The position numbers were made by a program, and so were the translations under genes. A stretch of DNA of 64,000 bases from a virus. Its lineage: Duplodnaviria; Caudoviricetes. Positions 1,176 through 52,651 of this stretch are shown here, one piece after another. The notes beneath the pieces were generated by a model that saw only the letters and a list, made by a program, of their open reading frames with translations, had not been told where the DNA came from and made no database searches. Every line of letters begins with the position of its first letter. Position 1 is the stretch's first letter. The stretch is taken from the IMG/VR virus record IMGVR_UViG_3300024229_000651; one strand, written 5' to 3'.

Positions 1176-1204
1176 ATTATAGCAAAGAACACATTCAATG
1201 TCAA
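1176..1204 (-). promoter_or_regulatory. Sigma70 consensus promoter for uvsE
   Basis: TTGACA-17 nt-TATAAT on the minus strand, a perfect consensus. Confidence 0.85.
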
Positions 1205-1210
1205 TAAATA
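1204..1210 (+). promoter_or_regulatory. T4-late-type promoter ATAAATA
   Basis: ATAAATA 5 nt before ATG 1216. Confidence 0.65.
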
Positions 1211-1215
1211 GTTGT

Positions 1216-2043
1216 ATGAAATATGACCTTATTATTGCTTGCGGTGACAGCTTCACCGAAGGGTGCCAAGATGCACTCAAAATACCTGTTGAACAAACAT
1301 GGCCCGGGTTGCTTGCGGAAAGTTTAGGCATTCCTTTTGTAAACTTAGCTATAGGGGGGTCATGTAATTTAGAGATTGCACTGCAACCACTGAAATCCGC
1401 CACAGCGGCAGAGCTCGAAATTATACATAAAGCCAAATGCCCTTTAATATTATTTAACTTTACTGTAATGGAAAGGATGCCATACGCTAGTCTTAGAGCG
1501 GGCTTCACTGAGTCGTGCTTCTCTATTTTACCAGAACACACAGAGGGACTTCGGATATCATATATAGATAAGACCGTTAAAGAAATGCTAATCGACAATT
1601 TTGTAAACCTTGATACGGAATGCGCATGGGATGCATATTCTATAAACCAGTCTGATGGTGATCGACCGGACAGAAATATTGACTGGTTTGTTTTTTCAAC
1701 AATGCAGGCAATTCGGACATGTATGAATTGGGAAAAACTAATCCCCAATTCAACTGTGGCATGGGGATTCATTCATATTAATACCAGCTTGGTTGGTAAC
1801 GGATTAGATCAATATTTTAATATGTTCAGTGACCACCCACACGAGCAGAAACTTAACTACCCATACTTAGAGAGGTGTTACAACAAATGCTTAAATATGA
1901 AGGAAGTTCAATCTATACTATATGACGAACATCTTCAATTCAGACAAGAATGTATAATAGCGCCACATGACGTCCACCCAAATCCACTGGGAATAGGCAT
2001 CATCGCTAAGTGGTTTGAGGATTACATTAGTGAAAACCTTTGA
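1216..2043 (+). CDS. SGNH/GDSL-like hydrolase, tandem copy 1
   Basis: ACGDSFTEG, NLAIGGSCN, HDVHPN. Start taken at ATG 1216 (MKYDLII). Confidence 0.7.
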   Translation: MKYDLIIACGDSFTEGCQDALKIPVEQTWPGLLAESLGIPFVNLAIGGSCNLEIALQPLKSATAAELEIIHKAKCPLILFNFTVMERMPYASLRAGFTESCFSILPEHTEGLRISYIDKTVKEMLIDNFVNLDTECAWDAYSINQSDGDRPDRNIDWFVFSTMQAIRTCMNWEKLIPNSTVAWGFIHINTSLVGNGLDQYFNMFSDHPHEQKLNYPYLERCYNKCLNMKEVQSILYDEHLQFRQECIIAPHDVHPNPLGIGIIAKWFEDYISENL

Positions 2044-2755
2044 TAGTATCATTGCATGCGGTGACAGTTATACCGAAGGCCATCGAGATGTTCTCGGAAT
2101 CGGTGTCGATCAAACTTGGCCTGGTAAGGTAGCAAAACATTTTGATGTACCGTATGAGAACTTAGCTGTAGGTGGAGCATGTAATTTAGAGATTGCACTG
2201 CAACCAATGTTAAGTCAACAAATGCAATATGCGAATCCTTTATACATATTCAATTTTACAATTGACGAACGATTGCTCATGCTGAACTCAGAGCCTGAAA
2301 AGGTTTTTCGAACATTATTTTCTCTACTAGAAGAGGACACACAGGACATACCTTTTTCTAATGAATATCGAAGAATCATAAATTATTTCTTGACCAAGCA
2401 TAACAGTGATGGACTTGACGGTTTCCAAACTCATACATTAAGATCTATACAACTTGCGCACAACGTTATGACTGTCAATCCAAATGCATCAGTGTTGTGG
2501 GGATTCATACACAGCGATCGCACGGGGGACGAAGACACTATTTTTGATCGTGGTGGTTTTGATTTTAATAATTCCACCACCGTTAATTTGCCTAATATAG
2601 AAACTTGCTATAATAAATATGTGGGTCACAAGCCTTTACAACATTTTATCGATGACAATTCGATGATAATAAGCAATCAAGACCCCCATCCTAACTTTAA
2701 AGGAATAAAAGTACTTGCCGATCATATGACAAGTATTATACAGAATGCAATTTGA
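2015..2755 (+). CDS. SGNH/GDSL-like hydrolase, tandem copy 2
   Basis: ACGDSYTEG, NLAVGGACN, QDPHPN. Confidence 0.7.
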   Translation: MRITLVKTFDSIIACGDSYTEGHRDVLGIGVDQTWPGKVAKHFDVPYENLAVGGACNLEIALQPMLSQQMQYANPLYIFNFTIDERLLMLNSEPEKVFRTLFSLLEEDTQDIPFSNEYRRIINYFLTKHNSDGLDGFQTHTLRSIQLAHNVMTVNPNASVLWGFIHSDRTGDEDTIFDRGGFDFNNSTTVNLPNIETCYNKYVGHKPLQHFIDDNSMIISNQDPHPNFKGIKVLADHMTSIIQNAI

Positions 2756-3566
2756 TGCTATAATAGCCTGCGGGTGCGACTATACCGAAGGGTGGCGAGA
2801 AATATCAGGCTTTTCCATAGAAGAAACATGGCCCGCACTAGTAGCAAAACATTTTGATGTACCTTATGAAAACTTAGGGCACGGATTTGCTTCTAACTAT
2901 CAAATTGCCACTCAGCCTTTTTACCACCAGAAAAATAGCTACAAACAACCTTTGTATATTTTCAACTTTACAATAGATCACCGATATCCCATTTTCGATC
3001 CGGAGCAATTAACAATCGATAGTATATCATCTATTCATGCTGATTGGATACATATGCACGAATGGGGTGTTGCTAATAAAATATCTATGCAGTACATGTT
3101 AGACAAAACTGTAGCAAACTATCCTGGTGATACAGAATGGCATAGATACCACGAACTTCACTCCAGTAAATCTTCATTAGAAGATAAAGTTAAAATGAAA
3201 AAGATGGAAACTGATGCTGTTTCCAAAAATGATTTTATAGATGGTTATCAGCACCTTACAAAAGAAGCAATACTTCTAGCACATCGAGTTACTGTTCAGA
3301 ACCCTAACGCTAAAATATTGTGGGGCTTTATATACGGGGACTATGAAATAGGTATGCCTAGTAATGTGCATATTAGGAATAATAAAACCGTGCTGTTTCC
3401 AAAGATCGAAAACTGCTACAACACACTATTTCAGGATAAATACTTACATGAGTACATTGCGTCTAACGGTTTTGTACTCGGCACAGAAGACATACACCCA
3501 AACAAAAAAGGCATTAACTTATTAAAAAATATGTTTGTTGACGCCATAAATACCAAATTTAAATAA
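2745..3566 (+). CDS. SGNH-like protein, tandem copy 3 (nucleophile motif altered)
   Basis: ACGCDYTEG in place of GDS, NLGHGFASN, EDIHPN. Confidence 0.6.
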   Translation: MQFDAIIACGCDYTEGWREISGFSIEETWPALVAKHFDVPYENLGHGFASNYQIATQPFYHQKNSYKQPLYIFNFTIDHRYPIFDPEQLTIDSISSIHADWIHMHEWGVANKISMQYMLDKTVANYPGDTEWHRYHELHSSKSSLEDKVKMKKMETDAVSKNDFIDGYQHLTKEAILLAHRVTVQNPNAKILWGFIYGDYEIGMPSNVHIRNNKTVLFPKIENCYNTLFQDKYLHEYIASNGFVLGTEDIHPNKKGINLLKNMFVDAINTKFK

Positions 3567-4295: not shown

Positions 4296-4739
4296 ATGGA
4301 CCGCAAAGCAATATTTGAACAACTAAAAATCGACGAAGGAGTTGTTTATGAAATTTATAAAGACCATCTGGGCTACCCAACTTTCGGAGTTGGCCACCTG
4401 GTCACAGAAAACGATCCAGAGCACGGAGCAGAAGTCGGAACATCCGTATCTGAGTCAAGAGTGGCAGAATGCTTTGAACGTGACCTTGACACCTCAATTA
4501 GTGAATGTGTTGCGTTATACGGAGAACAGTTTAATGAATGGCCAGGAGAAGTACAAGAAATCCTAGTTAACATGATGTTCAACATGGGCAGAACACGTTT
4601 AGGCAAGTTTAAAAACTTCCGCAAGGCACTAGAAGCTCAAGACTGGAAGAAAGCAGGAATTGAAGGCAGAGATAGCCGTTGGCACAAACAGGTAACTAAC
4701 CGTGCTGAAAGACTAATGGTAAGATTAGAGGAAGTATAA
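4296..4739 (+). CDS. T4-type lysozyme/endolysin (GH24)
   Basis: QLKIDEG...YKDHLGYPTFGVGHL catalytic E-x8-D-x5-T pattern; NMMFNMG; RWHKQVTNRA. Confidence 0.9.
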   Translation: MDRKAIFEQLKIDEGVVYEIYKDHLGYPTFGVGHLVTENDPEHGAEVGTSVSESRVAECFERDLDTSISECVALYGEQFNEWPGEVQEILVNMMFNMGRTRLGKFKNFRKALEAQDWKKAGIEGRDSRWHKQVTNRAERLMVRLEEV

Positions 4740-7080: not shown

Positions 7081-7084
7081 GATG

Positions 7085-7091
7085 ATAAATA
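7085..7091 (+). promoter_or_regulatory. Late-type promoter ATAAATA
   Basis: 6 nt before ATG 7098, no Shine-Dalgarno. Confidence 0.7.
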
Positions 7092-7097
7092 TTATGT

Positions 7098-7613
7098 ATG
7101 AAAATATATGAAATTACAGAAGCAGAAGGCGATAACTGTGAAAAATGTCGTGGCCGAGGCAAGTTAGACTTACATAGTGAAGATCCACATAAGTGTAATG
7201 CGTGTGATGGCACTGGCAAACAAAAGTGGAAACCAGAACCAGTTAATTTCAGTAAGTTTAAGAAGGTTGGCGAGCAGGTTGAAGAAACCATTGACAACGA
7301 TGATGATTTTTTTGAAGCATACGGCTGGATAGACGGCGAATCACTCGAAGAAGCAGAATATCAAGGACGTAAAGTTAAACTAGGCAAGCCTATGCAAGGT
7401 GATGTTAAGAAGTTTAAAGTTTATGTTAAAGATCCTAAAACAGGTAATGTTAAAAAAGTTAACTTTGGACACGGCGGAAGCAGTGTTAAAGGTAAAGCAA
7501 TGAAGATTAGAAAATCTAATCCTAAGGCTCGTAAGAGTTTCAGAGCAAGACATAACTGTGATAATCCAGGGCCTCGCACTAAGGCACGTTATTGGTCATG
7601 TAGGAAGTGGTAG
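7098..7613 (+). CDS. Leader-tagged protein with DnaJ-type Zn finger and basic C-terminal module
   Basis: MKIYEITE leader; CEKCRGRG and CNACDGTG; after LEE a K/R-rich module KKFKVYVKDPKTG...KSFRARHNC...YWSCRKW. Confidence 0.7.
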   Translation: MKIYEITEAEGDNCEKCRGRGKLDLHSEDPHKCNACDGTGKQKWKPEPVNFSKFKKVGEQVEETIDNDDDFFEAYGWIDGESLEEAEYQGRKVKLGKPMQGDVKKFKVYVKDPKTGNVKKVNFGHGGSSVKGKAMKIRKSNPKARKSFRARHNCDNPGPRTKARYWSCRKW

Positions 7614-36347: not shown

Positions 36348-36695
36348 TTATTGTGGTAATTGGTCTTTTACGGAACTGAGTGCTTGGTCCCCGGCTAAGC
36401 CAGGAACATCAACTTCAGGCTCTTCAGGCTCTTCGCCGTCGAGCATATCGTTATCAATTTTACCTTTGGGAGTAATGGAATCTGCTGTAATACCGCTAAC
36501 AACATCCAATTTGTTCATAGCTGCAATAAGTTCTTCTACACTTAATAAAAACCCATCATCTGCTAAATCGTTTTTGAATTCTTGCGTAGGTATATCACTG
36601 ACATCTTCTCCAGCATACTTTGCAAGCCTGTCGCGGATTGCAACTTCTAGTTCGTCAAAAAATGACTCTAGTAAAAATACTTCCGCGATTCGCAT
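36348..36695 (-). CDS. Acidic hypothetical protein, probable head component
   Basis: MRIAEVFLLE leader; coupled to 36697. Confidence 0.6.
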   Translation of the reverse strand: MRIAEVFLLESFFDELEVAIRDRLAKYAGEDVSDIPTQEFKNDLADDGFLLSVEELIAAMNKLDVVSGITADSITPKGKIDNDMLDGEEPEEPEVDVPGLAGDQALSSVKDQLPQ

Positions 36696-36696
36696 T

Positions 36697-38010
36697 TTAA
36701 ATCTCTTCTACAGCGTCTACGTCAACTGGTGCTCTACCCATTGGCTCTTCTTCTGGACCTGCAGCTGCAGGAACATTGTCAACTGGTGCATCTAACTCAG
36801 GTTCAGCTAATCCAGCTTGCTGATCCATTCCAGCGCCTGCCATACTGCCTACGCCTGTTAGTGAACCTACCGTAGCATCAATTCCTTCCTTGCCCATTTT
36901 GTTAGCATCAAGTAATGCACCAAGTGATGCTTCCATACTAGACTTCATTTGTGCTGCTTGCTCTGCACCAAATTCAGCTGACATTTGATCTGCGATTGCA
37001 GGAATATCTTCGTTCATCATTCTGCCAATACGCTCGATGTGATCTTGTACGTCATCGGCTAACGCTCGTAGTGCCATTACAACTTCTGCTTGCTCAACTT
37101 CAACTTCTTCACTCAACATACTGCCTATAATGTCGTCGAACATGTTTTCGCTTTCTTCAACAGATTCTGTTTTGCTCATAGCATCTTTAACAGCATCTAC
37201 CGACATGTCAAGTTCTTGTGCAATTTCTTCAACGCTCTTACCATCATTCTTTAGCTTATGCATATATTGAATGCTGTCCAGCAAGTTTCTTTCTGCAATC
37301 TTTTTGCCAAACATCTGGATGCCGTTAACTAATGCTTCTTCGTCTAATCCATTTAAGAAACCAACTACAGCATCTCTGCTCTTGCCAGTTACTTCTGCAA
37401 ATGTATTAACTTTTTCTTCTATAGCGTTATAGCTTTCCATGCTGTTTAACTCTACACCACATTCTTTAGCAAGTTCGCTCAACAGATATTCTGTTAAATC
37501 AGTTTCGGGACTGACAAACTCTGCTAATGCTTCATCCATTACACTATCTTCAGACATGCTGCAAGATTCCATATAATCCTTAGTAGCTTTAAGCACTAGT
37601 GGCATAATAACTTGATCGTCGTATGCATATCTAGAATCTTTTCTAAATCTATTCATACATTCGGAACATGCTTCTTCATCAGTGTAGCCTCCGTCCATAA
37701 GCTCTTGAACAGTTTGCTTGACTTCATTGCACATGCTTTCGTATGCTGGGCTTTCTGCATACATGCCCTCACCTAGCATTACATCAATAACGTCTTTGAC
37801 TCCCAAGTACTTTGCATACTCTGGATCCAATTGGAAACGCTTATTAGTGTTTTTAATGCTAATTATTTTATTTTGTGCCTGCTCTCGCACTTTTTCTAGC
37901 TTGGCTTTTGGATGAAAGCCTTTTACAGAGATACCAAAATTTTCTTTTAGGTATTTGTTTAAATCGCTGACACGTTGTGCGGCAGGTTTGTTGAATGTAG
38001 TTAATTTCAT
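36697..38010 (-). CDS. Acidic helical protein, prohead core/scaffold-like candidate
   Basis: Very acidic, coiled, many xxE sites (YME, VEE, LSEE); late promoter at 38041-38047. Confidence 0.5.
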   Translation of the reverse strand: MKLTTFNKPAAQRVSDLNKYLKENFGISVKGFHPKAKLEKVREQAQNKIISIKNTNKRFQLDPEYAKYLGVKDVIDVMLGEGMYAESPAYESMCNEVKQTVQELMDGGYTDEEACSECMNRFRKDSRYAYDDQVIMPLVLKATKDYMESCSMSEDSVMDEALAEFVSPETDLTEYLLSELAKECGVELNSMESYNAIEEKVNTFAEVTGKSRDAVVGFLNGLDEEALVNGIQMFGKKIAERNLLDSIQYMHKLKNDGKSVEEIAQELDMSVDAVKDAMSKTESVEESENMFDDIIGSMLSEEVEVEQAEVVMALRALADDVQDHIERIGRMMNEDIPAIADQMSAEFGAEQAAQMKSSMEASLGALLDANKMGKEGIDATVGSLTGVGSMAGAGMDQQAGLAEPELDAPVDNVPAAAGPEEEPMGRAPVDVDAVEEI

Positions 38011-38692: not shown

Positions 38693-38860
38693 CTACTTAA
38701 TAGATGATTGTACTTTTGGTCCAGGCTTTTTCTTAGGGCCGATCTTTTTAGGCTTCTTAGGTCGTTGCACTACTCTCTGTACATCGTTAGCAATGGACGG
38801 AATTGACGTTGCTACAGCGCCAGCTGTTATTGTTTCACCAATTATATCATGTATTTTCAT
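38693..38860 (-). CDS. 55-aa leader-tagged basic peptide (not in ORF track)
   Basis: MKIHDIIGETITAGAVATS...RPKKPKKIGPKKKPGPK; ATAAATA 6 nt upstream (38867-38873). Confidence 0.75.
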   Translation of the reverse strand: MKIHDIIGETITAGAVATSIPSIANDVQRVVQRPKKPKKIGPKKKPGPKVQSSIK

Positions 38861-38869
38861 ATGTACTAT

Positions 38870-40189
38870 TTATCTATTGTAGCAACTAAACACGTCTGTG
38901 AACCCGGGGTATATTTCTAACCATGATGAAACATCCTTAATTAGCATAGAATCAATGTGCTCTCGTTTACTAATAAAATTGTTGAAATTATGCTCAGTGA
39001 TTTCAATGTTTTTACTCTGTATATCTTGCCATAATACAGGAGAATCTTTTTTCATCTGTAAAGTTTCTAACTCTGCTAATATCATGTTAATTTTGTCCAT
39101 CACATTGTTTTGCTTGTCAAACATATTTGGATCATTATATAAATGGTCAAACGTTTTATACCCGTTTTTTCTTAAAAATTCAAATGTTCTACATGAACCT
39201 AAAATCATAAACGGTTGTTTCATTATGATAGGTTTATAAATTTTTTCTGTAACGTACACAGTATAGTCTACGAAGGTTTCTGTTATTATGTCGATCTCGC
39301 AGGATTTAAGTTGTTTTATAAAATCTTTATCTTGTGAGATCGACTTCATATGCACTTCTTCTTGTGATCGCCGATCAAGCACTAACGGATAATGATCTTC
39401 TAATGCTTCCAAATAAGATATGCCTTGCAACAACTCCGTTTGTGTTATACGATTTTCTAAATGTTGTTTGCCTAAGTATAGCACAGATTCTGCAAACAGT
39501 TTATTAAAAGGGACTGTAGGTGAACTAATCATACCATCTACATGCAGACCTCGCTGAATTAATCCTCCTAAAAGAAGTGCTCTGTGCGGTCTAGGAGCAT
39601 TATTAAGGCAACTAAACAACAGAGTTTTCTCTACACCATATGGATCAGCATCTTGTACTTTCTGAAACAAGTCTGCCATTGTGTCTTCTTTGTAGTTGTT
39701 AAGAAAAAACACTCTAAAATCATTTTTATATACACTGTTGTTATGTATATCAACAATGTTTTCAGCAGAATTACAATAAAATGTTTTACTTGGGTCTAAT
39801 CCAAAGGTTGTTGTTACCTGTGATATAAAATTAAATATAGAATTATCACAGTGGCCTTCTGCACTATTGTCAAACAATACGATTGGATTATTGCAATCTA
39901 GTATGTATTCGGGTATTATCTGTTTTGCTGCATCAAGTAATCTATTTTCCTCCCACAGTTTATAAATATTATCCGAGCCGATACCATCTAGACTAATAAT
40001 AAACAATACCGGCCTTTTGGACAACTTAGATATTTTATTATAGTGTATCCAGTTATCCGACATAAACTCGCACATACCTAACGCACAGTCTTTGCTAGTT
40101 GCTGGGACATTTTGGAGATCTATAATTTCAGATTTTCCACAGGAGGAAAGGAATGCTCGGAATGGGTTATCGATATCAGCAATAAACAT
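38870..40189 (-). CDS. Hypothetical protein, possible glycan-modifying (GT-B-like) enzyme
   Basis: FSCLNNAPRPHR, IITET, TEKIYKPIIMKQPFMILG; GTAAATA 6 nt upstream. Confidence 0.5.
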   Translation of the reverse strand: MFIADIDNPFRAFLSSCGKSEIIDLQNVPATSKDCALGMCEFMSDNWIHYNKISKLSKRPVLFIISLDGIGSDNIYKLWEENRLLDAAKQIIPEYILDCNNPIVLFDNSAEGHCDNSIFNFISQVTTTFGLDPSKTFYCNSAENIVDIHNNSVYKNDFRVFFLNNYKEDTMADLFQKVQDADPYGVEKTLLFSCLNNAPRPHRALLLGGLIQRGLHVDGMISSPTVPFNKLFAESVLYLGKQHLENRITQTELLQGISYLEALEDHYPLVLDRRSQEEVHMKSISQDKDFIKQLKSCEIDIITETFVDYTVYVTEKIYKPIIMKQPFMILGSCRTFEFLRKNGYKTFDHLYNDPNMFDKQNNVMDKINMILAELETLQMKKDSPVLWQDIQSKNIEITEHNFNNFISKREHIDSMLIKDVSSWLEIYPGFTDVFSCYNR

Positions 40190-40219: not shown

Positions 40220-40615
40220 CTATTTAATCTTTGGATTTCGGTAATTTTTTAAAGAATCGACTGCTGTATCAAGCATTTGTAGATAGAAAGGGTGCATTAT
40301 ATTTTCGCCACCAGTTGTGTTCATGGTCTGCAATTTAGACTTCAATCGGCGCCATTGGCCTTTTCTGCCGTCCGGGAAGGTTTGATGAACATGTGCAAGT
40401 ATATCTTGTAATATGATTCCTTTGTATGTATCTTTTGATTGATCTAACTTAGGAAAAAAATCTCTTACAAGCTGTCTATCACTTTCGTTTGTTTTCTTTT
40501 TCCTTTTAGGAAACACACTTGGGTTAGGTCTACGCAACATTTTACTAGCTGTTGCCGTGGAAGTAGCGATGGCGCCGCTGGTAGTAGTTTCTGTAATAAT
40601 ATCCGAAATCTTCAT
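40220..40615 (-). CDS. Leader-tagged hypothetical protein
   Basis: True start MKISDIITETTTSGAIATS at 40615; ATAAATA 5 nt upstream (40621-40627). Confidence 0.7.
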   Translation of the reverse strand: MKISDIITETTTSGAIATSTATASKMLRRPNPSVFPKRKKKTNESDRQLVRDFFPKLDQSKDTYKGIILQDILAHVHQTFPDGRKGQWRRLKSKLQTMNTTGGENIMHPFYLQMLDTAVDSLKNYRNPKIK

Positions 40616-40616
40616 A

Positions 40617-41204
40617 CTAGTATTTATCTGCAAACTGGTGATTAGCAGCTGCATGCCTGGCTTCGTCATCTCTAACTGCTTTCACCATATCAAAAAGTTT
40701 AGCATCTTTATCAAGTCCATAATAATCGATAGCTAGTTGAGGTGCATCTACATTCCTAACTTGTCTATTTTCTATCATAGTTAAATATGTCGTATAGCTA
40801 AGTACTGCTTCTTCTTCAAAAAATGCAATCATTTTGTGTGCTGTTCGAGGGAAAAGTACAAACATTACAAAATAAAAATTCCAAAATATAAATTGTGCTA
40901 ATAAAATTAGAAATCTTTCAAATATATTAGGTTTTGCAATTTCTATGAAGAACATTAGATGCATGCGTTCATTCTCTGCTTCTGCAAGCAGTTCGCGAAT
41001 CATTGGGCCGTATCCGGTTTGCAGCTGGCGTAAACTTTTTAAATGTATCCACATGCCTGCAACCATCCCCGGTACGCCAGCAATAGTTTCCAATACTACT
41101 GCCCTATGTCCATAGCGTTTTGCAAAAAAGAGATCAGCAAAAAAACGGAAAAATTTTGTCATAAACATAGCCGTCATGTCCGACAGCTTGTGCTGAAATG
41201 TCAT
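40617..41204 (-). CDS. aox: Alternative (ubiquinol) oxidase
   Basis: Di-iron motifs LETIAGVPGMV, ENERMHL, FEEEAVLSY, DEARH. Confidence 0.93.
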   Translation of the reverse strand: MTFQHKLSDMTAMFMTKFFRFFADLFFAKRYGHRAVVLETIAGVPGMVAGMWIHLKSLRQLQTGYGPMIRELLAEAENERMHLMFFIEIAKPNIFERFLILLAQFIFWNFYFVMFVLFPRTAHKMIAFFEEEAVLSYTTYLTMIENRQVRNVDAPQLAIDYYGLDKDAKLFDMVKAVRDDEARHAAANHQFADKY

Positions 41205-41216
41205 GGGTTGAAGCCT

Positions 41217-41756
41217 CTAGTTGTTTATTCTGATATTCACGACGTCCCAATCAATGATACGCCATATATTACTAAGGTATTTAGCTTTGTCGTGCTGATA
41301 GTCTAATGCCCACGCATGCTCCCACCAATCAATGAGCATTGCTATGTCATTTTTAATTTGGTGGTTAACTATTGTTTTGATATCACCGGATAAACTCATG
41401 TACACCCATCCGCTGCCTTGAATCTTCATTGCTACTTCTTCAAACTGCTCTTTGAAAGTCGCAAAGTCGCCGTATTTGCTATCTATAAGCTCTTTACTTG
41501 CCCCTGCAGGGTTATTACTACTACTTGGTGTTTTTAGCTGTGGGAAGAATACGTTGTGTAAGAATGCACCTGCTTCCATGAACTGTGCATCTCCTTTGCC
41601 TTCATTATATTTTGTAACGTATGCTTTAGCAAGTTTGCCGTAGTGAAAATTGATTGTGTCTTCACTCATTACAGGATCCAAGTCACTCTTGCTGTAAGGT
41701 AACTTTTCTTGCACTAACACTTTTTTATCTTCTGTTAAAAAATCGTGTAGTTTCAT
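41217..41756 (-). CDS. sod: Fe/Mn superoxide dismutase with N-terminal leader
   Basis: LPY, FHYGK...AY, LHNVFF, GSGWV, IDWWEHAW; N-terminus MKLHDFLTE. Confidence 0.9.
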   Translation of the reverse strand: MKLHDFLTEDKKVLVQEKLPYSKSDLDPVMSEDTINFHYGKLAKAYVTKYNEGKGDAQFMEAGAFLHNVFFPQLKTPSSSNNPAGASKELIDSKYGDFATFKEQFEEVAMKIQGSGWVYMSLSGDIKTIVNHQIKNDIAMLIDWWEHAWALDYQHDKAKYLSNIWRIIDWDVVNIRINN

Positions 41757-41950
41757 TTTTTCTTACCGCCTTTCATATTAGCACACCAGTGATACATTTT
41801 ACCCTTTTCACCACTGTATTTTTTAGCTTTTGCCCGTAAACTACTTACCGAACCTTTGCAACTTGCGCCTGCTTTTTTGACTCTACCTGGTCTGCTCTTG
41901 CCTTTCTTCTTACCGTCAGCAAAGTTTTCTGTAATTTCAACTATTTTCAT
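41753..41950 (-). CDS. 65-aa leader-tagged basic peptide
   Basis: MKIVEITE then NFADGKKKGKSRPGRVKKAGASC...HWCANMKGGKKK. Confidence 0.8.
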   Translation of the reverse strand: MKIVEITENFADGKKKGKSRPGRVKKAGASCKGSVSSLRAKAKKYSGEKGKMYHWCANMKGGKKK

Positions 41951-44900
41951 GCGTCTGGCTTGAATTCAAACGCAAACTTTCCGCCAATGCGTGAACTGTA
42001 ATAATTCTTGGCGCCGTCTAAGCGAATTTTACCCCGGAAATTAGGTGGATACAACGCTTCCCATCCTGTTACTCTAGCATTGTCGCCTTGTTTACCCATC
42101 TTGCAGTATAACTGAACAATACTGGACTGGTTAAGGAATGCAATAGCACCTGCACTAAATTGAGGTTCTTCGTTAATCATTGCTGCTACTTTTTTAGCCA
42201 GTAACGCAATTAACGCATATCCTACATTGAATCCAGGTATGTCCTGTTTAGGTGTTCCATAGTTAAATAGTTCTTTCGCCGATTTGCTTAATCCATCGTA
42301 ATCAGTTTTTCCTGCTTTAACGTACTCCATGATTTCTAGTTCTAACTTTTTAGGTAATACACCCAACAGTTCTGCTAATCTAAATGGTCCGTCGATTGCA
42401 GTAGATTCTTGTACAATCTTAATTATTTTAACTGTGTATGCATGTGCTTTGACTAATTCTGGTGGTGCTTTATCGATAGCATCTGCAATGTTCTTAGCAC
42501 TTGCTTTTGCACCCTTGCCGCCTTTACTACTGATGCCAACTTCGGTTCCGTCTGGGCCAATGAAAACACTATCAACCAGTGCATAGTTCATTGCTTGCGG
42601 CCAGAATACTCCAAACGTAGACCACTCGGCTCCGCCCATTAAATCTTGTCTAGCATCTTCAGCTTGTCCGCCCACCATGCCGCTCATCAATGCAACTGGT
42701 CCCATGATTTCACCAAAGTAATCTCTTAGTGCCGGTAAGTTCTGTATTTGGCCTTCAAATTCAGGATGTTGCTGTGCTTGGATACTGTGCAAAGCATCTA
42801 ATAGCTGTTGCTGTATTGCGTGTCCCTGGCTGTTATTCGAGACAGTGTTTATTATGTCATCTACGCTTGTATGCTGATTTTCGTTTTTGATTAAGTGCTG
42901 TGGGTCGATACCAAGGTCTAATTTTAATGCGCCAGCTTTTTGTAATTTCCAACCAGTTGGAACTTGATTATTAGCCCATGCTCCCATCATATCTACACGC
43001 TTCTGCTTAAAATATCGACCCCAGTACACTGGCTTATCATTATTACTAGGATCTGTAAGTGTTGCAATACCGAAAGCTAGACTACCGCTGTTTGGAGTGT
43101 TAGTCCACTCAATTTGTGCATTGAGCTGTTGTTCTATATCTGATGCAAAACTTTCACGCTCTGGTGCATCATCGAACTGTGCACGATCCTGTGGGTAAAC
43201 TTCTACACTGCTGAACTCAAGCGTACTGTCCCCTTTCTTAAATTGGTCGCCCACCACTCGTCCCATTAAACCTTTTGCTTCCGCAAGTATGCTCTTAACG
43301 TGAGAGGAACTCCACTCGTTTAATTTTATTTGACTTTGAACTTCTTCAGGTAGTGCTTGAGAGAAATATTTAACTATACCTCTAGCACATGCATCGTCGC
43401 CAGCTTGCGCTCTAAGATCATGAAATGCATCTAGCATTTCAGGTATAGGCATTACTTGGTATGCAAGCATTTGCTTCTTTAAATCACATACTGGAAAATG
43501 GTCTGCCATTAACCCATTAATAATTTCTGCTCTATTAAAATCGTGCACACTCTCAAAATTCAATGCTCGCATCTCACGCTCGAATTCCAAATCGTCTAAT
43601 TTTTTACGAGTGGCTGCTTTTTTAGCATCAAATTTTGCTGGACCATACTTATCCTGGTCTTTATAAGTTTTCCTATTAGCCGATCTCTTAACTGTTTTCT
43701 TTTTACCAGGTAAACCTTTTGTCCATGCTGTGTCTGGTCTACGATTAGGCAATGAAACTTTTTCTACCCGTTGAATACCCAGTTCTTTACTTGTGGGATT
43801 GGCAGGATCTTTGTATTTTCCATCAGCTGATGCTACTTTCCTTTTGGCACCTAGTCTTGTTTGAGCAACAACTTTTTTATTTGTGCCATCCCTATATACG
43901 ACATTATACAGATATTCACCAGTGCGCAATTCTACTTTTTCATCTTCAGGTGAGGCTTTAGAAGTATCTCTGCGAGCTTGTTTTGCAATTGCTTCATCAA
44001 TTTTATTTTTATCAATTTTTTCTAAAATGGCTAGTTGTTCCAATATTGGCAACTTATCAAATTTGTCAAACGGTGTCATTTTACTTTCCTGTACATCAAA
44101 TTTTATATTAAATCTCTGGCTTAGTAATTTACGATGGTCAGTTTTTAAAAAGCTGTGCGGAACGCCGATTGGTTCGCTCTGATATGTAGTACCAGCTGGA
44201 GCAAAGCCATACTTCTTGACAAACGCATCAACAACAGGTTTATATTCCATCTTTTTGGCTTCAAATTCTGCAATATCCTGTTGTCTTTGTCTAATAGAGC
44301 CTTTGAGTCTTTCTACTTTTTCTGGTTCAGCAACTTTAAGACCTTGCTTTATACCGTCGATCAGTCCTTGTTCATGTTCGATATAACGAGTAGCCTCGTC
44401 CACTTCAAAGCGAGCACGTTTAACTTTGTCTAACTCGTCATCGCTAATCACTTTAAAATCTTGTTGACTGATTGTTGCATTACTATCGGGCTTGTTATCG
44501 CCGAATAGGTCACCGAACAGTGCACGATGCTTATCTGTGGGTATTGCTATAACGTGTCCTTTAGGTGCAGTAATAGTGTATGATGCTTCCGGTGCGTTAG
44601 CATCCTGCTTTTTCAACAAGCTGTTTACAGCCGAAGCCATCTTTTCTAGTTTGTTGTGATGATCTCCCGGGAAGTTTTTCACAAACTCTGACTGTTGTAG
44701 TTCAGTCCACAATGCTTTAGGCGTTAAGCTGAAGTCTTTTAACGCTTGTCTAAATGCTGCAATAGCCGCCGATTTAGGTTCAGCCCTATTAGCACCGCTT
44801 GCAACGTCACTGGCTAACATAGCAAAAGCTCGCACAAAGTATTTCTGTGCTTTAATCATTGTTCTACGCCAGTCTTCGTCATCGCCTTCGGCTTCGAACG

Positions 44901-47028
44901 GCATCTCTTGTTGTGGATTAGCGTTCTTTGCACTTTGTGCATCTGCTAATTCCATGTATGCATTGCTCAATGATTCAATAGCATCTGTATAATGTTTTTC
45001 ACTTGCAATACTTTGGAAAGCAGCTAACACTTTATCGTTAATGCTTTCTGGGTCAACCATTGTTTGAGCTCTTTTAACAACATCGCCGCTTACTTCGTCT
45101 TTGCCTGCAATCATTTTAAACAGTGCTTTGATGTAGTCCTTGCGATATGCTTCTTCATCATGCCCGGCTTGCATCACTGCGGCATAACGGATAACTGCTT
45201 TCATCACTTTGTCGCTCATAGTGTGATAATCGTCGCCACCTGCAACACGGAATTCAATAAGTTTATTTTGCTCTACGTTTTTAGCATCTTTAAAGTTGAT
45301 ACTGCTGAACTTGCCATTACTGATGCCGCCTAACAGTATGTCTTCGAGACCAGCAAGGCTCTTTTCATCCTTGATATCGTTTTGTAGATTTTTGATATAC
45401 TTTCGTACTGTTTCTTGTTGACTCTGTGTATAAGTGTTATGCTCTCTGCCAAACTGCTTTAACACATACTTGTCGCCTAACAGCACAGCCATTTTTAGCT
45501 TGTTAGTTTTAGCGTAGTCCGAATCCATCCAACTCATTGTGACATGCAAACCAGTTGAACTGTTTGTTTCCACATTGTTGTTGTTCATGTACTCAAACAA
45601 ACTCTTCATCTCTTTGAGCATTTCTGCTGGGTTGTCATATACAGGTGAAATAATCTCTGCTTTTGCACCTTCGCCTTCGATTGAGGTGTCATCTTCCACA
45701 CGCCAATGGTCATTGTCTACGCCTTGGCCACTGTGATATACGCCCGGACGTACATCGTTGCTCTTACTGTTGTTGCTGGCCCAATCCTCTAGCATACTAG
45801 CTACAGCATCAACACCGCCGCCTTCGCCGCCTTCGTTGTACAAGTAAATGTCCATTTCGCCTAATAGGCTCCACCAACTGCCGCCGTGTTCTCTGCGAAC
45901 CCAATCGTCCATGTCGTATTGATCCATTGCACGTTGCCAGGATTCGTCCCATGCTTCGCCATTGTCGCGGATCTGTTCCTCTAGCCACTCAATAAATTCG
46001 TCTTCTTTGTACATTTCAACATATTCACGAGGCCATGCTTCATCGTCCCAATTGCTGTACTCTTCCAGCTCGTCCTGCATGTCGTCGATTTCTAATCGCT
46101 CCAGTTTGTCTGCCTTGTACTCTTCCACTTCGTCCATGTCAACATGATCGTTTACAAACTCATCTATGTACGCTTCATCTTCTTTGCGTTCGTTGACTAG
46201 CTCTAGGACAACGTCACTCTCTATTTCGTATACAACTTCTTCTTGTAGCCATTCGCGGTATGCTTCTTCCACACTCTCCACTGCACGTGATCCTTCTTGA
46301 TCGTAAATCAAATCACCGACACGGTTCCAATACAGGTCGTCTAGCCAACTGGTGTCGTCCTCGTCACTGCCTTCGCCTAGGTTAGGCCACACAGTTTCCG
46401 CTTCAAAGCCGCACTGTATGTTCGCATTCAGTGCACCTTGTGCAAGCTCTTTGCTGTTGAAGTTGATTTCAAAAATAGGCTCACCTTGTTCGGTCATTTT
46501 AATTTTACGGGTGAGCTTTTTGATCTTTTTTTGCAAACGATCCCGCTTAAAATGAAAATTACTTGTGCTACTTTTAGATAATTTGTCTAACTTGCCTTCA
46601 GTAAACTCTGGATTAGCCACAAACACTTCTTCGTCGGGGTCGTCTATAACTGAATATTCTTTTGTTTTAGGGTTCTGCACTACTACTGCTTCAGGCTTTG
46701 TGCCTTTTCCGATAGGAGATTTTACTACACCTGCTGATTTTCCATCTTTATCAAAGTATTCCATATCTGTTTTTAGTTCGCCTGCTTTAGCATTAATAAA
46801 TTTTGGAGTCTCTTGATCATTTGCTTTAGGAACTTCTAGACCAGGCGTGGTAGTAGGGCTTCCTAAATCAGGTTTGGCTGCTGTTTTACTTGTAGTAGGT
46901 GATTTTGTAGATGCATTTGCTTTTGCACTTGATCCCATGGATTGTTGGGAAGTAGGTGTACTTGCCCCTGGCTTCATACCATACTCCATAAGTAAATGAT
47001 CTATAGTCCTAATATCTGTGAATTTCAT
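41947..47028 (-). CDS. 1693-aa multidomain protein containing a putative amidoligase (COOH-NH2 ligase) domain
   Basis: GFEAET, WRVEDDTSI, AEIISP, TNSSTGLHVTMS, KFSSINF, IEFRVAGG; many xxE module boundaries. Confidence 0.7.
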   Translation of the reverse strand: MKFTDIRTIDHLLMEYGMKPGASTPTSQQSMGSSAKANASTKSPTTSKTAAKPDLGSPTTTPGLEVPKANDQETPKFINAKAGELKTDMEYFDKDGKSAGVVKSPIGKGTKPEAVVVQNPKTKEYSVIDDPDEEVFVANPEFTEGKLDKLSKSSTSNFHFKRDRLQKKIKKLTRKIKMTEQGEPIFEINFNSKELAQGALNANIQCGFEAETVWPNLGEGSDEDDTSWLDDLYWNRVGDLIYDQEGSRAVESVEEAYREWLQEEVVYEIESDVVLELVNERKEDEAYIDEFVNDHVDMDEVEEYKADKLERLEIDDMQDELEEYSNWDDEAWPREYVEMYKEDEFIEWLEEQIRDNGEAWDESWQRAMDQYDMDDWVRREHGGSWWSLLGEMDIYLYNEGGEGGGVDAVASMLEDWASNNSKSNDVRPGVYHSGQGVDNDHWRVEDDTSIEGEGAKAEIISPVYDNPAEMLKEMKSLFEYMNNNNVETNSSTGLHVTMSWMDSDYAKTNKLKMAVLLGDKYVLKQFGREHNTYTQSQQETVRKYIKNLQNDIKDEKSLAGLEDILLGGISNGKFSSINFKDAKNVEQNKLIEFRVAGGDDYHTMSDKVMKAVIRYAAVMQAGHDEEAYRKDYIKALFKMIAGKDEVSGDVVKRAQTMVDPESINDKVLAAFQSIASEKHYTDAIESLSNAYMELADAQSAKNANPQQEMPFEAEGDDEDWRRTMIKAQKYFVRAFAMLASDVASGANRAEPKSAAIAAFRQALKDFSLTPKALWTELQQSEFVKNFPGDHHNKLEKMASAVNSLLKKQDANAPEASYTITAPKGHVIAIPTDKHRALFGDLFGDNKPDSNATISQQDFKVISDDELDKVKRARFEVDEATRYIEHEQGLIDGIKQGLKVAEPEKVERLKGSIRQRQQDIAEFEAKKMEYKPVVDAFVKKYGFAPAGTTYQSEPIGVPHSFLKTDHRKLLSQRFNIKFDVQESKMTPFDKFDKLPILEQLAILEKIDKNKIDEAIAKQARRDTSKASPEDEKVELRTGEYLYNVVYRDGTNKKVVAQTRLGAKRKVASADGKYKDPANPTSKELGIQRVEKVSLPNRRPDTAWTKGLPGKKKTVKRSANRKTYKDQDKYGPAKFDAKKAATRKKLDDLEFEREMRALNFESVHDFNRAEIINGLMADHFPVCDLKKQMLAYQVMPIPEMLDAFHDLRAQAGDDACARGIVKYFSQALPEEVQSQIKLNEWSSSHVKSILAEAKGLMGRVVGDQFKKGDSTLEFSSVEVYPQDRAQFDDAPERESFASDIEQQLNAQIEWTNTPNSGSLAFGIATLTDPSNNDKPVYWGRYFKQKRVDMMGAWANNQVPTGWKLQKAGALKLDLGIDPQHLIKNENQHTSVDDIINTVSNNSQGHAIQQQLLDALHSIQAQQHPEFEGQIQNLPALRDYFGEIMGPVALMSGMVGGQAEDARQDLMGGAEWSTFGVFWPQAMNYALVDSVFIGPDGTEVGISSKGGKGAKASAKNIADAIDKAPPELVKAHAYTVKIIKIVQESTAIDGPFRLAELLGVLPKKLELEIMEYVKAGKTDYDGLSKSAKELFNYGTPKQDIPGFNVGYALIALLAKKVAAMINEEPQFSAGAIAFLNQSSIVQLYCKMGKQGDNARVTGWEALYPPNFRGKIRLDGAKNYYSSRIGGKFAFEFKPDA

Positions 47029-47029
47029 C

Positions 47030-47314
47030 TTATCGCCTATTTAAAGATTGTACTCTTCTGCTCTGAGGATTCAATCGTTTTGTTCGTCTAGCCTTTCTAG
47101 CCATTCTACCACCCATCTTTGCTTTTGTACGCTTGAGTGTTAGACGCTTTTTCATATTAATAGGCTTAGAGCATTGGCTAGGATTACTAACTACTCGGCC
47201 TTTTCGTCTACCAGATGTGCAACGAACTGCACGTTTTACAGTTTTCCCGGATCGACGCCATACCATACGGGTCTCCAGTAAACTATCTTCCTGTAACAGT
47301 TCGTCTAAACGCAA
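47030..47314 (-). CDS. Arg/Lys-rich leader-tagged protein
   Basis: TTG start gives MRLDELLQEDSLLE then TRMVWRRSG...RC...QC...RR. Confidence 0.7.
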   Translation of the reverse strand: MRLDELLQEDSLLETRMVWRRSGKTVKRAVRCTSGRRKGRVVSNPSQCSKPINMKKRLTLKRTKAKMGGRMARKARRTKRLNPQSRRVQSLNRR

Positions 47315-47963: not shown

Positions 47964-48009
47964 GTTTATCTCCTGTACGTGTATTTATCACGATACCGAT
48001 TATACAGCC

Positions 48010-48396: not shown

Positions 48397-48900
48397 TTAC
48401 TTTCTAGGCTTACGAATATTGCTTTTCATAAGTTTATCTGCAACATTAACAAAATCTTTGCTAATATCTGCGCCTAATTCAGCTGAATCAACGTTGAATA
48501 CATCCCTAGCAACTTGTTTAATCTTGTCTTTTGCTGCTTTGTACTTGGCGCCGGGTGTTGTTTTCTTATCCTGATAATACTGATTACCCCATTTCTTTCC
48601 TGATTTATCGCTAACTCTGTCAACTGTAGTGCTCGTAGTTGGCTCTGGTCTGGTCATAGGAGTTCGTTTTATTTTTTGGGCAGGTTCTTCCTTTGTATCA
48701 GGGGATTGCTTTTGTTTTCTGCGTTCGATGTCCTGAGCCATGCCAATAGCGTCTAATGCACTTATACCTTTATTAGACACTATACGTTTAGCTCTGGATA
48801 TAACATTATTACTTAACGAAGATCCGTGCTGTGCTTGTATTTGAGCTATCTGGTCAACGGTTAAATTTTCGTCTTCTAGAATTATATCGCTGATTTTCAT
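48397..48900 (-). CDS. Leader-tagged hypothetical protein
   Basis: MKISDIILEDE N-terminus. Confidence 0.7.
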   Translation of the reverse strand: MKISDIILEDENLTVDQIAQIQAQHGSSLSNNVISRAKRIVSNKGISALDAIGMAQDIERRKQKQSPDTKEEPAQKIKRTPMTRPEPTTSTTVDRVSDKSGKKWGNQYYQDKKTTPGAKYKAAKDKIKQVARDVFNVDSAELGADISKDFVNVADKLMKSNIRKPRK

Positions 48901-49679
48901 TACTGCTTTTTCCTTCCGCTAGCCCAGTATCCGGCAATTGCCCCTATACCTGCGCCAGTAGTGCTAGATATTTTGTTTTTAGACACTTTAGGTACAACTT
49001 TACTGCCTACGTATGCTCCAGCTGCTGTTGCTGCAGCTCTTTTTAACTTACTTGGCTCATTGCTAACGGGCGTATCTTTGTAGGCTCGTTCTCTTTTCAT
49101 AGAAATCAAATGATTGAATATTTCTGTAGTTTGTGCTTTTACTGAACGCAAAGACTGTAGAATTTTTGCAACCACATATTGCTTCTGGCTGTATTTTAAA
49201 TTATCCCAGTCTACAACTAAGCGTCTTAGTTGTTTGTATAATGCGTTCTTGATACTTAACTGAGATTCAAGTCTAATTAGAAATGCAGACATTTCACTTT
49301 TTGTAATATCTGTGGTTGCTACTGTACGCATCATTCTGTAATGTCTGCGATTATCAAAACTTAAACTAGCAAGCGACTTTTCAACACTGCCTTTAAACCT
49401 TAAACTTTTGTAGTCTGGGTTCTTAATTGCAAACCCCAACATATATAAATCTGTTGCTGCTGTTCTATAAGCAGCATAAGGTCCGTATTGTGATGTTTTT
49501 TGTGCATAGGCTTTTGCATAATCTCGTTGATCGCCATCTTGCGAGAACATTAATACTGCTAGTGTTTCTAGAAAAAATACGTCTGCAATATTTTGCGCAG
49601 ACATACGGCGAAATCCATCTGTGTTTCTATACAGTCTGCTTTCGCATAAATCCTCAGAATTAACCAGTAAGAGATCCAT
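48900..49679 (-). CDS. Hypothetical protein with C-terminal Gly/Ala-zipper
   Basis: LCESRLYR N-terminus; AAATAAGAYVG and TGAGIGAIAGYW. Confidence 0.65.
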   Translation of the reverse strand: MDLLLVNSEDLCESRLYRNTDGFRRMSAQNIADVFFLETLAVLMFSQDGDQRDYAKAYAQKTSQYGPYAAYRTAATDLYMLGFAIKNPDYKSLRFKGSVEKSLASLSFDNRRHYRMMRTVATTDITKSEMSAFLIRLESQLSIKNALYKQLRRLVVDWDNLKYSQKQYVVAKILQSLRSVKAQTTEIFNHLISMKRERAYKDTPVSNEPSKLKRAAATAAGAYVGSKVVPKVSKNKISSTTGAGIGAIAGYWASGRKKQ

Positions 49680-50974
49680 TATGCTCCAGGCTTCCCGGAG
49701 CCGAAATTCAATCTGCTAAATTCTAATCTATCAACTAACTTTAACGCATTGCCAATCCTGTCAACTGCTACGAAACCTTCCTCGCCAGTAACTTCAAATC
49801 CGTCACCTGTTTCTACAAAAGTTCCTATTTGCCTGATTTGTTCTAACTTTTTAACTATACGAATTTTTGCTTCGATCAACTTTAAATATAAATCGTATAC
49901 TGCAACAATTCCAGGAATGTGCTCTTTGATAAACTTAACACCGCCTACCATTTTTTCAGTTTTAGCATCTTTAGTTTTTTGCATAGAAACTTTGTCTATT
50001 TCTTTCTTCATAAAGTTAACATATTTTTCAACAAAGCCTTGCGCAAATTTAGTAGGCTCATCGAAGTGGCCTTGACGCACTTGATTATTTGCATGAGCTT
50101 TTAGCTGTTGCAAAAAGTCTTTACCGATCAAGTCGTTGCCCTTCTCTAGCCAAGAAAATGTTTCAGAATCAACACTCTTTAGATATGATGCTGCATCTTG
50201 TATTGCTTGCATTGTAGCAGAGCTTTCCTGTGCAGTCATTGTAACAGTGCCGCTAAGATCTTTAATTATCGCATCTCTGTGCCAAACACCATTGGTCTGT
50301 CCTAACACACTGCTGTCGAAGCCAAATTTTGCAGTTGTATCAGCTAGTGTTGGGCCGCCTACGTATTCTGTATGCCAAACTATACCAAAGCCTGCTGAAA
50401 GAATTTGTTTTCCTAAATCACTATCAGCTGGAACAGCATATGTGATAGTGTTGGGCTTGAATACAATATGTTCTGTATTGTCTATAACAACTTTACGTAA
50501 ATCTTCTTGTCCTGCGAATAGCATGTCGCCTTGCGCTACAGTGTCCCAATTTAATCCTTGCAAATATTTTAATGCTAATTTTAATTTAGTACGCAATCCG
50601 CTCGAATCTTTACCCTTGGGATCTGCATGATTAACATCAATATCTTTGTTTGTAAAATTTATTTTAGGTGTTTGCGCAAAAACGCCCTTAGTTCCTACAA
50701 AAAACTTACCTGTTGCAGGATCTTTACCTGCTATAATAGCAGGAGCACCATCCCATTTTGTTGTCATACTGATCGGTGCTTTTGAATTACCTTCCAGCAT
50801 ATCGTGTAAACTGTACAAATATTCTACTGCTTCTTTAGCGCCGGCATACCCTTTATTAAATATGTTGTCTTCTAGGTGCTCAAGGTGCGTGTTTTTACCA
50901 TCCTTGCTTTCTGTAATTACAGATTCAGATAATATGTTAACAACTTTAGGCTTTGATATTTCTATAAACTTCAT
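49679..50974 (-). CDS. KxDG ligase/nucleotidyltransferase-like protein with leader
   Basis: KNTHLEHLED, TTKWDGAPAI, QGDMLF, FKPNTITY, EGFVAVD; N-terminus MKFIEI...LSESVITE. Confidence 0.6.
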   Translation of the reverse strand: MKFIEISKPKVVNILSESVITESKDGKNTHLEHLEDNIFNKGYAGAKEAVEYLYSLHDMLEGNSKAPISMTTKWDGAPAIIAGKDPATGKFFVGTKGVFAQTPKINFTNKDIDVNHADPKGKDSSGLRTKLKLALKYLQGLNWDTVAQGDMLFAGQEDLRKVVIDNTEHIVFKPNTITYAVPADSDLGKQILSAGFGIVWHTEYVGGPTLADTTAKFGFDSSVLGQTNGVWHRDAIIKDLSGTVTMTAQESSATMQAIQDAASYLKSVDSETFSWLEKGNDLIGKDFLQQLKAHANNQVRQGHFDEPTKFAQGFVEKYVNFMKKEIDKVSMQKTKDAKTEKMVGGVKFIKEHIPGIVAVYDLYLKLIEAKIRIVKKLEQIRQIGTFVETGDGFEVTGEEGFVAVDRIGNALKLVDRLEFSRLNFGSGKPGA

Positions 50975-52594: not shown

Positions 52595-52651
52595 AAGTCC
52601 TAATCTTTCTTATATTTATCAAAATATTTAAAATTTATTTAAGTAAGAATG

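Follow-up and report, generated by a model that had tools for sequence, protein, structure and literature searches.

A compact superoxide dismutase of a T4-related jumbo phage with a candidate capsid-targeting leader

In the genome (~340 kb) of a jumbo phage related to T4 we have found a compact Fe/Mn superoxide dismutase (SOD) that is, to judge from its candidate leader, probably a capsid-targeted cargo enzyme processed by a prohead protease. The leader, MKLHDFLTE, precedes the canonical start of the enzyme, ends in the cleavage motif of a T4 gp21-type protease that the same genome encodes, and recurs on unrelated proteins of the phage. The mechanism is already known from the capsid targeting sequence (CTS) and gp21 protease of phage T4, and a phage Fe/Mn SOD would, on the sequence evidence, be new as its cargo; our literature search turned up no report of a phage Fe/Mn SOD carried in the virion.

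Results

Genome and gene

The window, the whole stretch of 64,000 nucleotides that was analysed, corresponds to bases 153549-217548 of an IMG/VR virus record that has 339,794 bp and an estimated completeness of ~91%. The SOD precursor gene, recognised by Pfam, AF2 and PDB matches, appears in the list of open reading frames on the minus strand at 41217-41756, stop codon included, and specifies 179 aa (20.7 kDa) from an ATG start. Codons 1-9 (41730-41756, minus strand) encode the leader MKLHDFLTE, and a prohead-protease cut predicted after L7-T8-E9 would leave a mature SOD of 170 aa (D10-N179; 41220-41729, minus strand; 19.6 kDa). The start of the gene overlaps the stop of a 65-aa gene upstream by 4 nt (ATGA), an arrangement expected for translational coupling, and an alternative oxidase (AOX) gene begins 12 nt downstream in the same apparent transcript. 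Megablast of the 20 kb around the SOD gene against cultured phages returned zero matches, and in PHROGs a family was absent for the SOD, the AOX and the small leader-bearing proteins.

Elsewhere in the window, at 1198-3566 on the plus strand, stand three tandem paralogues (281, 246 and 273 aa) with an IIACGDS(F/Y)TEG motif at the N-terminus and the look of SGNH-type hydrolases; further SGNH-like starts (GCSF) occur at 4739, 21021 and 54032.

The superoxide dismutase domain

Both parts of the SOD domain scored above the curated Pfam cut-offs (Sod_Fe_C, PF02777, 3.2e-22; Sod_Fe_N, PF00081, 4.6e-9), and the Sod_Fe_N match spans just positions 6-40 of the 82 in the profile, which points to a shortened helical hairpin. 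The AF2 model, made with 31 homologues, had a mean pLDDT of 91.8, and every one of its top PDB matches was an Fe/Mn SOD, with TM-scores (normalised to query length) of ~0.82-0.87. The best solved sequence match was SodFM2 of Bacteroides fragilis (8avm, ~31% identity), compared with which the phage enzyme is missing ~18 residues of the hairpin loop and ~8 residues of the sheet region.

The metal ligands H38, H67, D143 and H147 and the gateway Tyr46 align with the 8avm ligands and are invariant across the 31 homologues, which bears out the statement of a first-pass annotation of this DNA that all four ligands and the active-site Tyr are present. The position of the Fe-type second-sphere Gln is taken by Ala64, and the Mn-type position by N131-H132-Q133, of which N131 and H132 are invariant among homologues. 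The equivalent of His30 is Leu42, and the HHxKHH of cellular SODs reads HYGKLA here. SOD activity is plausible, and the predicted mature enzyme keeps the metal site complete in both sequence and model.

The N-terminal leader and the prohead protease

Residue 17 of the query aligns with residue 5 of the 8avm chain, so the phage SOD starts ~12 residues early; the extra N-terminus that the first-pass annotation had seen ahead of the canonical SOD start is thus upheld. The leader comprises 9-12 residues, ends L7-T8-E9, and has a core, DFLTE, that is invariant in close relatives. A signal-peptide reading was rejected by eye, the leader being short, acidic and without a hydrophobic core. In the AF2 model pLDDT averages 49 over residues 1-10 and drops under 50 at residues 7-9, and the fold becomes confident from about residue 11 onward. 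The model gives residues 3-6 as a short helix, and residues 1-10 are not packed on the fold.

In T4, gp21 cleaves after L/I-X-E; in the CTS of IPIII, targeting is the task of residues 4 and 7 and processing that of residues 8 and 10 (PMC9026906). The maturation site of gp23 in the T4 record reads FLTE/A (here and below, the slash follows the terminal Glu). The present genome encodes a Peptidase_S77 (T4 gp21-type) prohead protease (G000:C1:272084-272692; 5.8e-25), a gp23-type capsid protein and a T4-type portal (5.4e-114), and its head genes run in the order portal, 66-aa protein, acidic protein, protease, scaffold, capsid protein. When the scaffold protein (alignment A2) was modelled together with SOD residues 1-45, the complex scored 0.00, which speaks neither for nor against binding.

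The scaffold protein (G000:C1:270962-272074; P0273) belongs to a family with >4700 metagenomic matches at E <=1e-10, and the label of DtxR regulator or SbcC ATPase that some sources give the family looks like mis-annotation. The Phage_sheath_1 Pfam model had zero matches in the genome.

The first-pass annotation had also named the leader as the closest match in the window to the T4 sequence MKTYQEFIAE. This did not hold: by BLOSUM62 the helicase start MQEYTEEIQE comes before it and it shares second place among the real N-termini of the window, and its global score of 20 compares with a genome-wide maximum of 25 among 3118 frames. The aromatic and L/I-x-E positions do line up, though not beyond chance, and since likeness of this degree to the T4 CTS is expected by chance, the resemblance by itself is no evidence. 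What speaks for a T4-like capsid targeting sequence, as that annotation had called the leader, is the protease, the L-x-E ending, the recurrence, conservation and disorder of the leader, and the operon.

Conservation of the leader in the compact SOD family

Aquatic metagenomes are rich in the compact SOD family (2421 matches at E <=1e-5), whose N-termini were compared in 178 phage-type homologues in which they are intact. At least 8 residues stand before LPY in 169/178, and a hydrophobic-x-E leader is present in 162/178. Of these 162, 130 have Leu or Ile at P3 and 147 have the Glu 8-12 residues ahead of LPY; S, A, K or G predominate at P1'. The residues before the first ligand His number 25-31 in cellular-type SODs, 37 in this SOD and a median of 38 in the phage-type. 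The first-pass annotation had named the same extension in cellular SODs as a finding that would speak against its reading; the cellular-type homologues compared here have either no extension or long signal-like sequences.

The leaders are otherwise very diverse (e.g. MYNFIKYVVE/G and MSDIRNLINLVE/A) against a core that is 60-90% identical, and the leader pattern is conserved in >160 homologues, down to ~35% identity. Nine leaderless members start exactly at the canonical domain (MKLVLEK-LPY), some of them with C-terminal extensions. Since such leaderless orthologues exist and residues 1-10 are modelled at a pLDDT of 49, the leader is dispensable for the fold. In a leaderless subfamily (P0123, P0125, P0126, P0128 and L053) KYHRDNL replaces HYGKL and the C-terminal extensions have 70-190 residues; one member has a weak DUF5872 match, and a separate DUF5872 gene adjoins it.

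The SOD module is fused to other modules in the metagenomic proteins P0044, P0191, P0142, P0179 and P0180. A small N-terminal module of P0044 is joined to the SOD through LGLTE/SKK, with L-T-E where the leader ends in our phage, and P0191 runs on for ~480 residues past the SOD. By their sequences these fusions look like polyprotein cargo precursors, and the retention of the L-T-E junction in them fits protease processing.

Recurrence of the leader in the genome

For a leader matrix we used residues 1-10 of 34 metagenomic SOD homologues and nothing else, and scanned it over all 3118 ATG-started frames of at least 45 codons in the genome. The best three non-self matches, MKISDIILE, MKISDIITE and MKIHDIIGE in that order, all lie <10 kb from the SOD. 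They begin, respectively, a 167-aa basic protein (48397-48900, minus strand), a 131-aa basic protein (40220-40615, minus strand) and a 55-aa basic protein (38693-38860, minus strand) that is a paralogue of the 131-aa protein. Among 395 ORFs, 11 have starts of the form M-[KR]-hydrophobic-x-[DEQ]-hydrophobic, and 8 of these 11 belong to a single cluster of 18 genes (Fisher p = 5e-10). Recurrence of the leader is beyond chance. The sole full-pattern match outside the window begins the 66-aa protein beside the portal, which occupies the position of T4 gene 67 and is homologous to gp150 of phage PA5oct (41% identity, 5e-16).

Variants of the leader are both shorter (MKIVEITE, MKIYEITE and MRLDELLQE) and longer (on a 1693-aa protein and a DUF6267 protein). 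MKIVEITE begins the 65-aa basic protein (41753-41950, minus strand; pI 10.3) whose gene shares the 4-nt overlap with the SOD start. MRLDELLQE is found on a 94-aa very basic protein (47030-47314, minus strand; pI 12.0) with an apparent TTG start, whose orthologues in L010 and L020 start MKLDEV and MRLSDLTE. MKIYEITE begins a 171-aa protein encoded by an outlying leader-bearing gene (7098-7613, plus strand). In the SOD operon, the 1693-aa protein (41947-47028, minus strand) starts with MKFTDIRTIDHLLME, a leader that ends L-M-E; it has a weak amidoligase domain at residues 438-585 and an N-region that is Ser/Thr/Pro-rich and of low complexity. The DUF6267 protein (431 aa; 49679-50974, minus strand; Pfam 5.6e-99) has a 17-22-aa leader ending ILSE / ITE. 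A leader is present on the DUF6267 protein of Methylophilales phage Melnitz (L056, MINFSKYITE/D) and absent from that of cyanophage S-RIM44 (L055), and this presence or absence among phages is the same modular behaviour as that of the SOD leader. DUF6267 proteins are widespread in T4-like cyanophages (462 records). Two acidic proteins at 36348-38010 (minus strand), of 437 aa and 115 aa (MRIAEVFLLE), are syntenic with the PA5oct structural proteins gp237 and gp238.

The leaders of different genes use different synonymous codons (TCG against AGC for Ser; ATT, ATA and ATC for Ile). That the peptide is kept while its codons differ indicates selection on the peptide and argues against a signal for translation at the nucleotide level. 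Five of the small leader-bearing proteins are very basic (pI 9.8-12.0) and are candidate analogues of the DNA-associated internal proteins of T4, which are small and highly basic (PMC8442874).

Operon and putative late promoter

The motif GATAAATA occurs in 20 copies in the window, where 5.6 ± 2.3 are expected, and genome-wide 46 of its 61 copies are followed within 150 nt by a gene on the same strand; the T4-type portal gene and other large genes are among those that it precedes. Its enrichment and its position upstream of genes make it a plausible late-type promoter, and it probably does for this phage what TATAAATA, the canonical late promoter, does for T4; TATAAATA itself was not enriched (4 copies against 8 expected). 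Copies of GATAAATA directly precede several tagged genes, with distances of 5 nt for the 131-aa protein and 7 nt for the 171-aa protein. Examples of sites are 7084-7091 (plus strand) and 38867-38874, 40621-40628, 47982-47989 and 52613-52620 (all minus strand). In many genes just 5-8 nt separate the end of the motif from the ATG, so that the mRNAs would be almost leaderless.

Nearest upstream of the SOD is the copy at 47982-47989 (minus strand), 6.2 kb away from it, and the first gene of the operon (132 aa) begins 19 nt after this copy. A tightly packed run follows the motif, encoding proteins of 132 aa, 82 aa, 94 aa (basic), 1693 aa and 65 aa (basic), then the SOD and the AOX. Scans for intrinsic terminators and sigma-70 promoters stayed at chance level, with no terminator signal above chance between this motif and the SOD. 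Because the nearest recognisable motif is as far as 6.2 kb upstream, late transcription of the SOD, on a polycistronic message with the tagged genes, is putative. The AOX gene (40617-41204, minus strand; Pfam AOX 2.6e-67) has no leader, and the two enzymes may form a redox pair of which only the SOD is tagged.

Cultured relatives and PA5oct virions

The nearest cultured relatives of the SOD are those of Vibrio phage 2.275.O (43% identity) and the PA5oct group (40%), and the Vibrio phage 2.275.O and PA5oct genomes both carry a T4-type protease. The SOD of Vibrio phage 2.275.O is truly leaderless, with just seven open codons upstream, though the protease is present. When the SOD-leader matrix was run over the 3881 frames of PA5oct, EST35_0238/gp238 (MKIKDILVE) came first and EST35_0150/gp150 (MKINDIITE) second. 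Both are annotated as structural proteins detected by ESI-MS/MS, and gp150 is the small protein adjoining the portal; the third match, EST35_0271, is without ESI-MS/MS detection.

An ESI-MS/MS note is also attached to the PA5oct SOD homologue, gp261 (EST35_0261, annotated hypothetical), whose leader (residues 1-13) ends I-A-E, 9 residues before the (I/L)PY motif. The particles for mass spectrometry were PEG-precipitated and CsCl-banded (PMC7318152). The same virion data list GTP cyclohydrolase, QueD, FtsH, ligase and ClpP, all of them leaderless, so the detection of gp261 is weak and not specific. Searching PA5oct with gp261's own leader (KKYISIAEA) gave no convincing other protein, and a 250-kb relative (G001) searched with its SOD leader gave only weak, diverse matches. 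In the nearest phage relatives the SOD gene sits among genes for Clp, FtsH and ribosomal proteins rather than with the head genes.

Discussion

We favor the reading of the SOD as a capsid-targeted, protease-processed cargo enzyme, which would work as follows. The SOD would be transcribed late together with the small basic tagged proteins and the giant multi-domain protein, and would be translated from the ATG at 41756, a start that conservation supports. By analogy with the T4 internal proteins, MKLHDFLTE would hold the SOD precursor on the scaffolding core during assembly of the shell. The gp21-type serine protease would then cut after L7-T8-E9, as the motif and its conservation in the family suggest, whereupon the nonapeptide would leave and the 170-residue, 19,557-Da SOD would stay in the capsid with the DNA. 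Mature SOD might dismutate superoxide inside the particle or, once ejected along with the DNA, in the new host cell. Its proposed roles, the shielding of DNA in sunlit water and the quenching of reactive oxygen species (ROS) on entry, are speculation.

Several observations count against the cargo reading. The SOD is acidic (pI 5.7), whereas the internal proteins of T4 are small and basic. Fe/Mn SODs are normally oligomeric metalloenzymes, and ejection through a tail would need unfolding and re-metallation. The SOD of Vibrio phage 2.275.O is leaderless in a phage that has the protease, and EST35_0271 lacks detection. The chance-level likeness to the T4 CTS, the detection of leaderless enzymes alongside gp261, the failure to find gp261's leader on a second PA5oct protein and the 6.2 kb between the SOD and the nearest late-type motif count on this side too. 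The leaderless AOX directly downstream would suit an intracellular redox module.

Alternative explanations

That last point belongs to the rival that survives best, in which the SOD is a cytoplasmic auxiliary enzyme that acts with the AOX against oxidative stress late in infection, and the shared tag serves some purpose other than loading, for example regulated turnover, co-localisation at the assembly site without encapsidation, or efficient initiation of late-gene translation. We regard it as unlikely. In its favor, the AOX gene lies on the same apparent transcript, the SOD keeps company in the nearest phage relatives with Clp, FtsH and ribosomal-protein genes, and gp261 may be carry-over, given the leaderless enzymes in the PA5oct virion data. 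A start of MK plus a hydrophobic residue is moreover common, being found on 32/395 ORFs. However, the final residues of the leader match exactly the cleavage rule of the protease encoded in this genome, and in PA5oct the motif is borne by head-module and structural proteins detected by mass spectrometry. A role in translation initiation is further opposed by the variation of codons under a constant peptide and by the invariant Glu, which is held at a fixed spacing without an obvious role in translation.

It is much less probable that the extension is an intrinsic structural element of the compact SOD, such as an oligomerisation helix that offsets the short hairpin, and that its likeness to the starts of neighboring proteins is incidental. 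Such an element would account for the presence of the leader in most members of the compact family, for the 8-12 residues to which the leader-LPY spacing is held, and for the short helix predicted at residues 3-6. Yet the leaderless members (Vibrio phage 2.275.O and the MKLVLEK-LPY subfamily) keep the same compact core, the leaders are far more variable than that core except at their hydrophobic-x-E end, the first ten residues are modelled with low confidence and away from the fold, and unrelated proteins bear the same leader.

That the leader is an annotation artefact and translation really starts further downstream is hardly credible: codons 13 and 15 are GTG in this copy and the leaderless subfamily does start at the equivalent place, but close relatives have GTA or AAA at those positions and always ATG or GTG at codon 1, which speaks against a downstream start, the leader pattern is kept across the >160 homologues described above, and the ATG overlaps the upstream stop as translational coupling would have it.

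Comparison with known systems

The capsid-cargo reading places the SOD beside the CTS and gp21 system of T4, and T4-like phages have been suggested to pack varied proteins by means of CTS-like tags (PMC9026906). As in T4, an N-terminal extension of ~10 residues with an L/I-x-E end stands ahead of a complete protein, in a genome with a gp21-type protease, a scaffold, a portal and a gp23-type capsid protein; the tag is common to unrelated proteins, several of them small and very basic, and an enzyme as cargo has a counterpart in T4 Alt. The consensus differs, being here M-K-(I/L)-x-(D/E)-(I/F)-(I/L)-x-E over 8-9 residues. The cargo would be an acidic metalloenzyme, and the tagged set, known here from sequence, is much larger than that of T4 and includes the 1693-aa protein.

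On a wider view, which we put forward tentatively, aquatic T4-related jumbo phages may carry a capsid enzyme kit from which a tagged SOD is ejected with the DNA, where it would blunt a superoxide burst or a host response dependent on ROS within the first minutes of infection. The SOD of such a kit would be metal-loaded or capable of re-metallation, and would be addressed by a short cleavable tag. If so, it would be the first antioxidant enzyme demonstrated in the cargo of a phage head, cargo loading of the T4 kind, known for a few small anti-restriction proteins and Alt, would in nature take in whole sets of enzymes with an antioxidant metalloenzyme among them, and phage particles would deliver catalytic activities beside their DNA at entry.

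Parallels would then exist in the virion SODs of giant viruses of eukaryotes. A precedent is the Cu/Zn SOD of chlorovirus PBCV-1, which is late and virion-packaged (PMC7019647), and this protein (A245R) and that of Megavirus chilensis resemble our candidate as late viral SODs in the particle that are thought to lower superoxide in early infection. They differ in belonging to the Cu/Zn family, in their eukaryotic hosts, and in having neither a cleavable targeting peptide nor a T4-type protease.

With the cambialistic and Fe-type SODs of cells (8avm; 1qnn of Porphyromonas gingivalis) the phage enzyme has the two-domain fold, the four ligands and the Tyr in common. It is distinguished from them by its low identity (~31%), the trimmed hairpin and sheet, the 12-residue N-terminal extension, the HYGKLA sequence, the Ala at the Fe-type Gln position and the N-H-Q at the Mn-type position. 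Among phages, PA5oct gp261 has the same architecture: it is a compact SOD, 40% identical, with a leader ending I-A-E and a T4-type protease encoded alongside, whereas its leader is unrelated in detail to MKLHDFLTE and its gene has no adjoining AOX or cluster of tagged genes.
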